Below, one piece after another: positions 39,001 to 42,000 of a stretch of 64,000 bases of DNA; within the stretch, counting starts at the first letter, position 1; each line of letters begins with the position of its first letter. A program made the position numbers. Source of the DNA: Escherichia coli (GTDB lineage: Bacteria; Pseudomonadota; Gammaproteobacteria; Enterobacterales; Enterobacteriaceae); NCBI RefSeq assembly GCF_030013595.1, contig NZ_CP122768.1; one strand, 5' to 3'.

Positions 39001-42000
39001 GACTGGGATCTCTGGCAGGCAGAAGCCTCTATCCGCAACAACAAGATGTGAGGGTTTCCAAAATGCAAAAAATCGACCTCGGCAACAACGAATCCCTAGT
39101 GTGTGGCGTGTTCCCCAACCAGGATGGAACGTTCACCGCCATGACTTATACCAAAAGCAAGACATTCAAAACTGAAACGGGCGCACGTCGCTGGCTTGCC
39201 AGAAATACTTGCTGATCCATTATTTGGATTAATTCAATATTCTCGCTGTAGGGGTATAGCCGAGGCCACCAAAGCCCGGAGGTGGTGAAATAAAACCGGG
39301 CGCAACACGAAGGCGCATTTCCGATATCCATAAAGAGTCGGTTTTGTCTGTTAAATTTAAATGGTGGGAGTGCTCCTCCGGTTGTAAATAACGACATTGC
39401 TGTGTGTAGTCTTGGCGGCATCAGTTTTTTCTTGAAGTTCGGCTGATGTCCGCCCTTTTTAAAGTGAATTTTGTGATGCGGTGAATGCGGCTCAGCGCAC
39501 GCGGAACAGTTAAAAAAGTGATCGGTACTCTGTATTTGTTTTATGGAGTTGGTTTCCCTGTATTCCGGCGTTAATTGTTAACTGGTTAACGTCACCTGGA
39601 GGCACCAGGCACCGCATCACAAAATTCACTTAGTAACCAAGAAGAGAATTATATGCAAGAGATAAGTTTTGAAATAACAGCAAAAGATGTACAGGTTAAG
39701 CCCGATTACAATCAAAAATTATGTATTGAAGTCAATGGCGTGAAGTTATCAGACCTGATTGATTCAGTTGAAGATAACGACGCTATTATTGAAATGGTTG
39801 GAGCCGAAGAAATAGCAGAATACTTTTCAACAGAGGGGCGTCTTCATGAGCTTCTGGAAAAATTTTCATATCAGGATATCGCTACATTTCTGGAAATTAA
39901 TGGTTATAAAGTTACCGAGGAATAAAGTAGCTCAGGTGGCGTTATGGAACGTAATCATCTAACAGCTATCAGTGCCGCACAGAGTAAATTCGCCATCGCT
40001 GTATTTTTACAGGATGAAGAAATGTTTGAGCAGGCCATTATTCAGTTTGCAATTGCGACCGGGAGTAAAATAAATGAACACTTTGTTCGCTCTTGTCATG
40101 ACCGTTTTTCTGACATCAGGCGAAACTCAGGATGTTGTTACCGGAATTTATAACTCCGAATCTGAATGCAAGGCCGCAGCTATTGAGCAAAAAGTAGCTG
40201 GTGAATGTTTCCCTGTTGAGAAATTTATCCGGCCTGTAGATGAAGAAATTCCCGCAGGCCTCACAGGAGAAAATCATGAAAATAAAATGTGGTTACCACC
40301 TTTGCAATAAAGACGTTGAAGAAAGCAAAACCATTAAAAGACCACTTCATTTCATGCGTGGAGTTATCCCAACGACGGAAATGAAAAAATATTGTAGTGA
40401 AAATTGTGCCGAAAAAGACCAGATGGCACACGAACTTTAATTAACTGACTATTCGAAACTGAATTTATGCCAGAAATGGCAGGGATTCGCTCAACCTTAA
40501 TTAAGGAGAAAAACATGATTACCAATTATGAAACCACTGTTGTAACTACCGATGACATTGTTCACGAGGTGAATCTGGAAGGAAAGCGCATTGGCTACGT
40601 AATTAAAACAGAAAATAAAGAAACCCCATTCACTGTGGTTGATATCGATGGTCCATCAGGCAACGTAAAAACACTTGATGAAGGTGTCACAAAAATGAGC
40701 CTGGTTCACATCGGAAAGAATCTGCCCGCAGAAAAAAAAGCCGGATTTCTGGCAACTCTGATCGCAATGAAATTAAACGGTGAAATCTGAAAAAAAGAAA
40801 GCCTGCACTGTGTGCAGGCCTGAGTGAAGAACCTGGGACATTTATTCATCACTCGCAGTAATTTTAATCTGAGTTGAGGTTAAAAAACAATGAGCACAAA
40901 ACCACTCTTCCTTTTACGGAAAGCGAAAAAATCATCCGGTGAGCCTGACGTCGTCCTGTGGGCAAGCGACGATTTTGAATCAACCTGTGCCACTCTGGAC
41001 TACCTGATCGTTAAGTCAGGTAAAAAACTGAGCAACTATTTTAAAGCTATTGCAACTAATTTTCCTGTCGTTAATGACCTGCCCCCTGAAGGTGAGATCG
41101 ATTTTACCTGGAGTGAACGCTATCAACTCAGCAAAGACTCCATGACATGGGAACTAAAACCGGGAGCAGCGCCAGACGACGTTCACCACCAGGATAATGC
41201 TCAAGAAACCAACGAACTGGCGGGAGGCCAGGAAGAAAACGCGCAGGCAGACGCCCACGAGGATTGCCAGGATTGCGAAGTCTCTGTAGCCACTTTGCGG
41301 TTCACACAGCGTCTTCTGCACATTTTTACGTATGCAGCCGGGGATCGGAAATACCTGCATCATGCCACCCGTGAACAACGCAAACACATTACTGCTCTTG
41401 AGATGGATCAGGAAAACAGCTATGTCCAGAATCTGCTGTTGGCCATACGCAGCATGGCAGAACCGACAACTCTGGATAATGCCGCCCTGCTCCGCCTGAC
41501 TGATGCAATTAAGGCAGTGTTCTCTATCACGAAAAAACATCAGCCCTATGAATTTAAGAATTTCATTTCAGCCTGGCTGGATACCGAACACATTGATCGC
41601 GGTCTTCTGACAAAAGAATGGCGAAAAGGAAATCGTGTTTCACGCATCACGCGCACGGCTTCCGGCGCTAATGCTGGCGGCGGAAACCTCACCGATCGCG
41701 GCGAAGGTTTCGTTCACGATCTGACGTCACTGGCGCGCGACGTAGCCACTGGCGTACTGGCTCGTTCAATGGACGTGGACATTTATAACCTTCATCCGGC
41801 ACACGCTAAACGTGTCGAGGAAATTATCGCTGAAAATAAACCACCCTTTTCTGTTTTCCGCGACAAATTCATCACCATGCCTGGTGGGCTGGATTATTCC
41901 CGCGCCATCGTGGTTGCGTCCGTAAAAGAAGCACCAATTGGGATCGAGGTTATCCCCGCACACGTCACCGAATATCTTAACAAAGTACTGACTGAAACTG

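Follow-up and report, generated by a model that had tools for sequence, protein, structure and literature searches.

Long helices that flank an RNA and are cut on both strands by RNase III are found in the 16S and 23S ribosomal RNA (rRNA) stalks and in the lambda N leader, where cleavage frees the enclosed RNA and sets the ends of its neighbours; lambda has an RNase III site of this kind in its pL operon as well. Here we examined a 64,000-nucleotide (nt) stretch of Escherichia coli DNA (contig NZ_CP122768.1, assembly GCF_030013595.1), referred to as the window, which holds a Rac-like prophage. A perfect inverted repeat lies in the early-left operon of this prophage, between ydaF and a group of small open reading frames (ORFs). 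The repeat has no sequence relationship to the rRNA stalks or the lambda N leader. By analogy with the K-12 prophage Qin, our verdict is that it would be a new example of a known arrangement, an RNase III stalk after DicF, which here would close an RNA domain of the STnc100 family.

The closest described system is the dicBF operon of Qin. The passages on DicF in PMC5069750 and PMC9438474, both citing Faubladier, Cam and Bouché 1990, give two routes to this small RNA (sRNA): a 53-nt form ends at the terminator, and RNase III processes the full-length dicBF RNA to yield a 72-nt form. The repeat-bearing part of the window is also the dicF-dicB spacer of Qin, where a homologous module (a DicF-type terminator, AAAGUGAAUUUUGUGAUG(C/U)GGUG, the domain and CAC(C/U)GCAUCACAAAAUUCA) stands ahead of a division-inhibitor gene and the 72-nt end reported in those passages maps halfway along the 5' arm. 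The Qin helix has 21 base pairs (bp) with up to three G-U pairs, whereas the window helix is a perfect 22 bp. Qin also differs in the seed of its upstream sRNA and in having dicB downstream, in contrast to an ORF of 90 amino acids (aa) followed by a lambda-type kil in the window.

STnc100 is related to PasD and overlaps EcOnc27/sRNA103. These are prophage sRNAs of Enterobacterales, and EcOnc27/sRNA103 and PasD are reported to be Hfq-associated; STnc100 itself is described as a prophage sRNA without an established role. The window element shares with it a prophage location and the following parts: helix P1 with a GGUGAAU junction, P2 with a UNNGC loop, P4, and P5 (CCNGG-AGGCA-CCNGG) followed by the P1 3' strand. 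In contrast to STnc100, every P2 pair is changed (GCGGC for CCCCC), P1 is 22 bp rather than 6-12 bp, a ribosome-binding site (RBS) and an ORF take the place of the 3' linker and terminator, and the element is embedded in an operon instead of standing alone. Another close counterpart is the kilR leader of K-12 Rac, which is ~88% identical over 412 nt, including a DicF-like sRNA and the domain. Unlike the window, it has a one-base bulge and a G-U pair in its 3' arm (-30.2 versus -36.2 kcal/mol), sieB upstream on the other strand, and kilR after the domain.

The inverted repeat and the RNA domain it encloses

A repeat search of the window found 22-nt arms at 39462-39483 and 39610-39631, which are 100% complementary and 126 nt apart. 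The first-pass annotation had described perfect 21-bp repeats bracketing 126 bp; the perfect pairing and the spacing were confirmed, and each arm proved one base longer. The 21-mer has only two sites in the window with up to three mismatches allowed (0 expected from 100 shuffles), so the search for further copies returned none beyond the two arms. A sequencing or assembly artefact had been named as a possible undoing of the repeat. The repeat is no such artefact: 34 complete E. coli records contain the 437-bp intergenic region that carries it at 99% identity or more, and the pig strain ETEC1732 (L001; L numbers denote the loci used for comparison) has it at 100%. Nor is the 126-bp segment a novel insertion, as had been supposed, because the whole module is common to K-12 Rac, Qin and many phages. 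The module was matched in 4632 of 5426 E. coli genomes, at a median of two places per genome, and also in lambdoid phages with kil or dicB (Rac-SA53, mEp460, Tritos and Stx phages). Among the variants compared, the window allele has the most stable flank duplex (-36.2 kcal/mol) and the sole perfect helix. Since mainly one U-to-C change, which turns a G-U into a G-C pair, separates its 3' arm from the common dicB-type 3' arm, the perfection of the helix is a small step and not a distinct feature.

An Rfam search of the window gave matches to two adjacent + strand RNAs, DicF (RF00039) and then STnc100 (RF02076). The STnc100 match covers 39457-39656 and model positions 1-206 (34.6 bits, E = 9.6e-5), and the outermost helix of the model aligns with the inner part of the repeat. 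Fold prediction, which the first-pass annotation had proposed as a check, gave a 22-bp helix formed by the two arms that closes a multi-branched domain (-97.8 kcal/mol, z = -5.4 versus shuffles). Together with the covariation described below, these results suggest that the + strand very probably encodes a 170-nt RNA domain of the STnc100 family whose P1 is the repeat. Judged from its sequence, the window RNA is a divergent member of this family.

In the predicted structure, the P1 5' strand (39462-39483) is the 5' arm, its outer 12 nt being an extension and its inner 10 nt the P1 typical of the family. It leads into junction J1/2, an AAU at 39484-39486 that is nearly invariant in the alignment of relatives, and into the P2 hairpin GCGGC-UCAGC-GC(A)CGC (39487-39502), which has 5 bp, one bulged nt and a UNNGC loop. 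A putative pseudoknot strand, CAGUUAA (39507-39513), comes next and would pair with UUAACUG (39578-39584) in the loop of P4. Between them lie an insert with one or more local hairpins (39514-39568), variable in length among members, and the 5' side of the predicted P4 hairpin CGUUAA-UUGUUAACUGG-UUAACG (39569-39591). The P5 hairpin CCUGG-AGGCA-CCAGG, with the invariant GGAGGCACC, occupies 39595-39609 and abuts the P1 3' strand, which is the 3' arm (39610-39631). Both GTTAAC hexamers of the window (39577-39582 and 39585-39590) fall in the P4 hairpin. What had been listed as a pair of DNA palindromes would instead be one RNA hairpin stem (CGUUAA/UUAACG) plus the pseudoknot strand UUAACUG.

Relatives were collected in two scans. 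One used the invariant 3' motif CACCNGGAGGCACCNGGCAC on one genome per species and returned 120 loci, mostly from Enterobacterales (Escherichia, Citrobacter, Enterobacter, Salmonella, Pantoea, Erwinia, Rahnella, Serratia and Cedecea); the other used the E. coli-type 5' motif on viral contigs. About 100 distinct elements showed a single architecture, namely P1, AAU, P2, the strand that pairs with the P4 loop, one or more variable hairpins, GCGR, P4, UCA, P5 and the P1 3' strand. Covariation was assessed in 60 diverse family members. Across P1, P2 and P5, 92% of cells were paired and 13 of 21 pairs had changes on both sides, a level reached by none of 500 shuffles. The inner six pairs of P1 were 100% paired in the 60 sequences and three of them covary; the P1 ending in GGUG, the AAU that follows and the 3' strand CACC directly after P5 are all present in the window. 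P2 was likewise 100% paired, with both sides changed in five of six pairs, and the window P2 departs from the common CCCCC-UNNGC-GG(N)GGG with full compensation. The free pair of P5 is G-C in 51 sequences and U-A in nine and never a mismatch, while the invariance of the P5 motif stems partly from the collection, in which that motif was the search pattern. The base of P4 was 89% paired and covaries.

For the pseudoknot, complementarity was measured within each sequence and averaged 6.8 nt, compared to 5.2 nt in shuffled controls; a foreign-loop control was weak, since relatives share loop sequences. The pairs themselves vary among members (CCAGUC/GACUGG, GAGCCACAA/UUGUGGCUU, AGGCUAC/GUAGCCU and AGACUGACAAA/UUUGUCAGUCU). 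A GGAGG, which resembles a Shine-Dalgarno sequence, is invariant in the P5 stem and loop of all members (window 39596-39604) and stays constant when the P5 pair next to it covaries. The search motif accounts for part of this constancy. The sequence might be bound by the ribosome or by a protein. The compact pseudoknotted fold, taken with the invariant loop and junction bases including this GGAGG, suggests a specific partner.

Of the three options that the first-pass annotation had offered for the repeat, a regulatory stem-loop, a recombination site or a miniature inverted-repeat transposable element (MITE), the stem-loop was the right one, and the repeat is a helix of the + strand RNA. In Qin, both arms carry C-to-T changes that leave G-U pairs on the + strand and would be A-C mismatches on the other, which indicates that the repeat acts as + strand RNA. 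The outer helix also shows compensatory changes in Citrobacter L048 (ACGAAU/GUUCGU for GUGAAU/AUUCAC) and in L168, L172 and L248. A DNA-level feature, whether an invertible promoter switch, the footprint of a MITE or insertion sequence (IS), or a site-specific recombination site, would suit two perfect 22-bp repeats bracketing a short segment, with the boundary of a variable gene slot directly after the 3' arm. When the inner 126 bp were flipped in the query, however, none of the 5426 E. coli genomes covered at least 80% of it, and the maximum of 58% came from the flanks only. The window has just two copies of the arm, and the arms always accompany the RNA domain; in the E. coli and phage loci examined, every match has the same early-left prophage setting or belongs to the P1-type ban operon, and copies are never dispersed. 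Arms are imperfect or bulged in most relatives, arm changes preserve pairing, and G-U pairing kept on one strand together with covarying inner helices is a signature of RNA. Because of the G-U and compensatory changes and the absence of flipped genomes, the switch, MITE and recombination readings were rejected, and we regard any of them as extremely improbable. A terminator scan called no intrinsic terminator at the 3' arm, which is followed by AGUAACCAAG and not by a U-run.

Probable processing by RNase III and competing explanations

Directly upstream of P1, at 39401-39460 on the + strand, lies a candidate DicF-like sRNA paralogue with a terminator hairpin and U-tract and with a different 5' seed, UGCUGUGUGUAGUC (UGCUGUGUGUAGUCUUGGCGG). 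Its match to the DicF model (39401-39455, 41.1 bits, E = 1.9e-6) does not reach the gathering score of 48, and the same sequence in K-12-like Rac (L002 3161-3216) is also below it at 39.1 bits. The RNA aligns with the true DicF of Qin and O145, keeping the terminator hairpin and differing in the 5' seed. On this alignment it is best called a DicF-like paralogue rather than DicF, and its targets would differ from those of DicF, given the different seed. This sRNA is unannotated in the window locus and in K-12-like Rac.

The repeat is most likely an RNase III processing stalk downstream of this DicF-like sRNA, as the comparison with Qin suggests. With dicF annotated at L004 1883-1935, the 72-nt form given in PMC5069750 and PMC9438474 would have its 3' end at position 1954. 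The Qin 5' arm is L004 1943-1963, so this end falls on the 12th base of the 21-nt arm, which aligns with window position 39474. RNase III accommodates about 22 bp of double-stranded RNA (PMC6212723), and a 72-nt end at mid-arm fits because the enzyme binds a duplex of about that length. The 22 uninterrupted Watson-Crick pairs of the window helix meet the size need of an RNase III substrate (~20-22 bp, two turns). From the Qin 72-nt DicF, a cut in the 5' arm is predicted at 39474/39475, accurate to a few nt; combined with the 2-nt 3' overhang geometry of the enzyme (PMC6212723), it predicts a cut in the 3' arm at 39620/39621. That the window copy is cut as in Qin, and exactly at these sites, is inferred from the homology of the two modules.

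In the transcript of the prophage early-left operon, the + strand arms would pair to form the 22-bp P1 that closes the 170-nt pseudoknotted domain. Upon read-through past the DicF-like terminator, RNase III would cut both strands of P1 in mid-helix and generate three products. The first would be a DicF-like RNA with a 3' extension of ~19 nt that ends near 39474, and the second a free domain of ~146 nt whose remaining P1, at 9 bp, is as long as is usual in the family. The third would be the downstream messenger RNA (mRNA), starting at ~39621 with a leader of ~32 nt before the AUG of the 90-aa ORF. We consider it likely, by analogy with Qin, that the window copy is processed by RNase III, and about equally so that the reading holds as a whole, with a 22-bp P1 that is cut by this enzyme and closes an STnc100-type domain.

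The long helix is specific to copies directly following a DicF-type terminator. P1 measures 6-12 bp in most members and ~21-23 bp only in these copies. The median energy of the 26-nt flank duplex was -30.2 kcal/mol for 22 variants after a DicF-type terminator, compared to -14.4 kcal/mol for 126 others, several outliers of which are DicF-like contexts that the filter missed.

Family members also occur in other settings. In the P1-type phages P7 (L005 2501-2616; STnc100 match of 43 bits) and D6 (L006 2501-2621), a copy lies in the C1-controlled ban operon, after transfer RNA (tRNA) genes and ~40 nt before terB/tciA, a gene whose annotation refers to resistance to tellurite or colicin or to the inhibition of cell division. 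One copy has been placed 75 nt after stx2B (PMC12370729). Copies stand before tRNA genes in Citrobacter braakii; in strain ATCC 51113, three copies within 1 kb (L049 10186-11190) are interleaved with tRNA genes, one a tRNA-Met called by ARAGORN and one read by eye, each starting 5-7 nt past the P1 3' strand. Further copies abut tRNA genes in L038 and L044 and, by eye, in L127. Five IMG/VR contigs (L140, L164, L135, L178 and L211) have the reversed order: an STnc100-like domain whose P1 has 9 bp comes first and, ~15 nt on, the same DicF-like seed as in the window and a DicF-type terminator. This order suggests that the two modules form one composite sRNA precursor or alternate in arrays. In Pantoea/Erwinia-type loci (L092, L116, L161 and L028), a 17-20-bp hairpin whose 3' half reads as a boxA-like GUGCUCUUACC adjoins P1 on the 5' side or shares part of its 5' strand; candidate roles are a further helix of the RNase III type, a structure that competes with P1 for pairing and a nut-like signal.

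Several points weigh against RNase III processing of an STnc100-type domain in the window. In PMC5069750 and PMC9438474, cleavage by RNase III is documented for Qin only and through secondary citations, and, depending on the 5' end used there for the 72-nt figure, the site may lie a few nt away. The only RNase III site described in a 2023 study is upstream of DicF, and full-length dicBF transcripts were undetected under its conditions. A literature search gave nothing on RNase III at the Rac kilR leader. The operon-embedded copies of P7 and D6 have a P1 of only 8 bp, so that embedded copies do not in general need a long stalk. The window copy falls short of the STnc100 gathering score of 47 bits, as do its relatives of the same subfamily (34.4 bits in Qin, 43.0 in P7, 43.4 in L140 and 43.9 in L248). 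Only 45% of the pseudoknot columns were paired in the MAFFT alignment. Upper P4 gave a similar column-wise value (~45%). Misalignment of the variable region accounts for both low values, and the per-sequence test with shuffles was used for this reason. The pseudoknot, which would explain why two GTTAAC palindromes are present, is likely, with per-sequence complementarity as its sole support.

In the main texts on RNase III targets, PMC6212723 among them, kilR and dicB go unmentioned. Work on OxyS reported that lowered NusG raises kilR mRNA, the 5' ends of which are unmapped there. The upstream RNase III site of Qin, which gives a 190-nt species, was considered to lie in a degenerate upstream copy of the domain, but the fold of L004 1690-1940 was unconvincing (z = -1.8) and the idea was dropped.

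The long helix might be a structural clamp only, with an intact domain that acts in cis on the next gene without cleavage, for example as a shield on the 5' side of the mRNA or as a control on how strongly the first ORF is translated. In DicF-linked copies the first ORF usually starts ~15-26 nt after the 3' arm, whichever gene it is (dicB, kilR, lambda-type kil or the 90-aa ORF), and the helix is kept through compensatory changes, as such a role would have it. We nevertheless consider a pure clamp improbable, given that the RNase III-dependent 72-nt DicF described for Qin ends within the homologous helix and that ~22 bp would be unneeded where 6-12 bp is enough elsewhere. Still less probable is a separate trans-acting sRNA gene of the Hfq type, with its own promoter, a TAAAGT in the 5' arm as -10 and a repeat that is incidental. 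Such genes seem to exist in the family. A sigma-70-like promoter ending 3-11 nt 5' of P1 scored at least 7/12 in 51 of 103 members versus 21 of 103 at a control offset, and a linker and intrinsic terminator follow the domain in 50 of 103 (median 26.5 nt past P1), so on these signals many short-P1 copies look like stand-alone sRNA genes; the relatives EcOnc27 and PasD are reported to be Hfq-bound. The window, however, has no acceptable -35 and no promoter was called there. Its domain lacks the sRNA-type end (3' linker and terminator, the last ~40 STnc100 model positions) and is instead followed by an RBS and ORF, the RBS and AUG of the 90-aa ORF beginning 21 nt after P1. The -10-like hexamer is destroyed in L168, L048 and L248 while compensatory changes restore pairing, and transcripts that began within the arm could not form the conserved helix.

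The compact, pseudoknotted, multi-helical fold with its invariant loop and junction nucleotides could also belong to a processive antitermination element (put- or nut-like) or a riboswitch-like element that controls read-through into kil and recET by modifying RNA polymerase or by sensing a ligand. Many loci have the order promoter, domain, terminator, and a boxA-like GUGCUCUU lies just 5' of P1 in some subfamilies. In the window, however, this motif is absent, and where present it is the 3' half of a hairpin. Because the window domain lies downstream of the first terminator rather than upstream, because the content downstream is unrelated among loci (seed and terminator, tRNAs, varied ORFs) and because no alternative terminator/antiterminator pairing was found, roles of this kind have as small a chance here as the separate sRNA gene.

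A broader proposal concerns what the freed domain does. Tentatively, and with the odds against it, the ~146-nt domain could be a self-contained pseudoknotted functional RNA module rather than a base-pairing sRNA, for example a protein or small-molecule site or a catalytic or polymerase-directed element. It would be placed before interchangeable RNAs (an sRNA seed and terminator, tRNAs, or mRNAs of division inhibitors) and released by RNase III in DicF-linked copies. If so, the STnc100 model captures one form of a broader, functionally new RNA class.

The repeat is neither a mobile element nor a DNA switch. The preferred reading, processing by RNase III, links two elements in a way that we did not find in the literature searched: the helix in which long DicF is cut would be the P1 that encloses an STnc100-type structured RNA. 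Toxic small genes in many prophages, among them kilR of K-12 Rac and dicB of Qin, are preceded by this module. Leaky expression of prophage division inhibitors affects host viability, and the reading opens their post-transcriptional control to testing, as well as the way in which DicF-type sRNAs arise when transcription runs past the terminator. Since the whole subfamily scores below the Rfam threshold, genome annotation misses it. By-products of the analysis are the link between two known elements, a subfamily missed by Rfam and an unannotated Kil homologue.

Prophage context and downstream genes

The genes around the repeat are arranged on the + strand in the following order. A repressor-like helix-turn-helix gene in the racR position (38217-38681) is followed by a ydaG-like ORF, ydaF (39063-39215), the 437-bp non-coding stretch directly after ydaF, five small ORFs and recE (40890-43541). 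In K-12-like Rac (L002), sieB follows ydaF on the opposite strand and kilR stands where the 90-aa ORF begins in the window. The comparison with K-12 Rac, proposed as a way to define the replaced segment, supported the claim that sieB and kilR are missing from this slot: sieB is absent and kilR is replaced, with the repeat segment kept (39241-39652 is the part ~88% identical to the sieB-kilR intergenic region). In place of sieB and ~45 nt 5' of its start codon, the window has ~25 nt (39216-39240 versus L002 2467-3000), and ydaF and the RNA region on either side of this replacement are retained.

The small downstream ORFs exist as the first-pass annotation described them, including the hydrophobic N-terminus and the overlap. 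The first of them (39653-39925) encodes the 90-aa acidic protein (isoelectric point 4.17; 21 acidic versus 7 basic residues), which matches phrog_7311 (E = 8.5e-18) and had no NCBIfam match and no significant Pfam match. The protein is rare, with 14 matching clusters among 1.84 billion representatives. A 40%-identical homologue occupies the same slot in the Rac-like prophage L248, behind an STnc100-like element with a long P1. An AlphaFold2 model from 15 sequences was poor (predicted local distance difference test, pLDDT, 64; predicted template modelling score, pTM, 0.34).

The slot had been proposed to hold host-takeover, Kil-like or anti-restriction genes, and the division-inhibitor type was borne out by the second ORF (39944-40153, 69 aa). 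Residues 10-32 match Lambda_Kil (Pfam PF06301, E = 8e-8), and three PHROG Kil families match as well (E = 2.6e-6 to 1.3e-3), so by these matches the ORF is a probable lambda Kil homologue. It overlaps the start of the next gene, which encodes a DUF1482 protein, by 80 nt and is unannotated in the identical RefSeq locus of ETEC1732. In Citrobacter braakii, the RNA element is followed at once by an orthologue of this ORF (L050 4401-4631). A tblastn search of phage genomes with the 90-aa and 69-aa ORFs gave no match. The DUF1482 protein (40074-40310, 78 aa) has the hydrophobic N-terminus and matches phrog_1092 (E = 4e-30), and PGAP gives the same name to the L001 copy. A YdaE family protein (40276-40440; NF041288, 88.9 bits versus a cut-off of 35) and a RacC-like protein (40515-40790; NF007306, 196 bits; phrog_4778) complete the group.

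PGAP also calls an incomplete 'cell division inhibition protein DicB' pseudogene at 39562-39627 (L001 3347-3412), inside the structured RNA, and makes the same call in the O145 Rac-like prophage (L003 2586-2669). Its 22 codons bear no resemblance to mature DicB, and by this comparison the call is most likely an annotation artefact. The long form of the dicB ORF reportedly described by Cam et al. 1988, whose start lies upstream and in phase, is probably behind the call.

Other Rfam RNAs that reach the gathering score in the window are sRNA-Xcc1 (6469-6552), sok (31891-32064), RalA (44617-44795), FnrS (49105-49222), RNA-OUT of IS10 (51791-51860) and McaS (57427-57522). RalA is the antitoxin of RalR and is expected for Rac.

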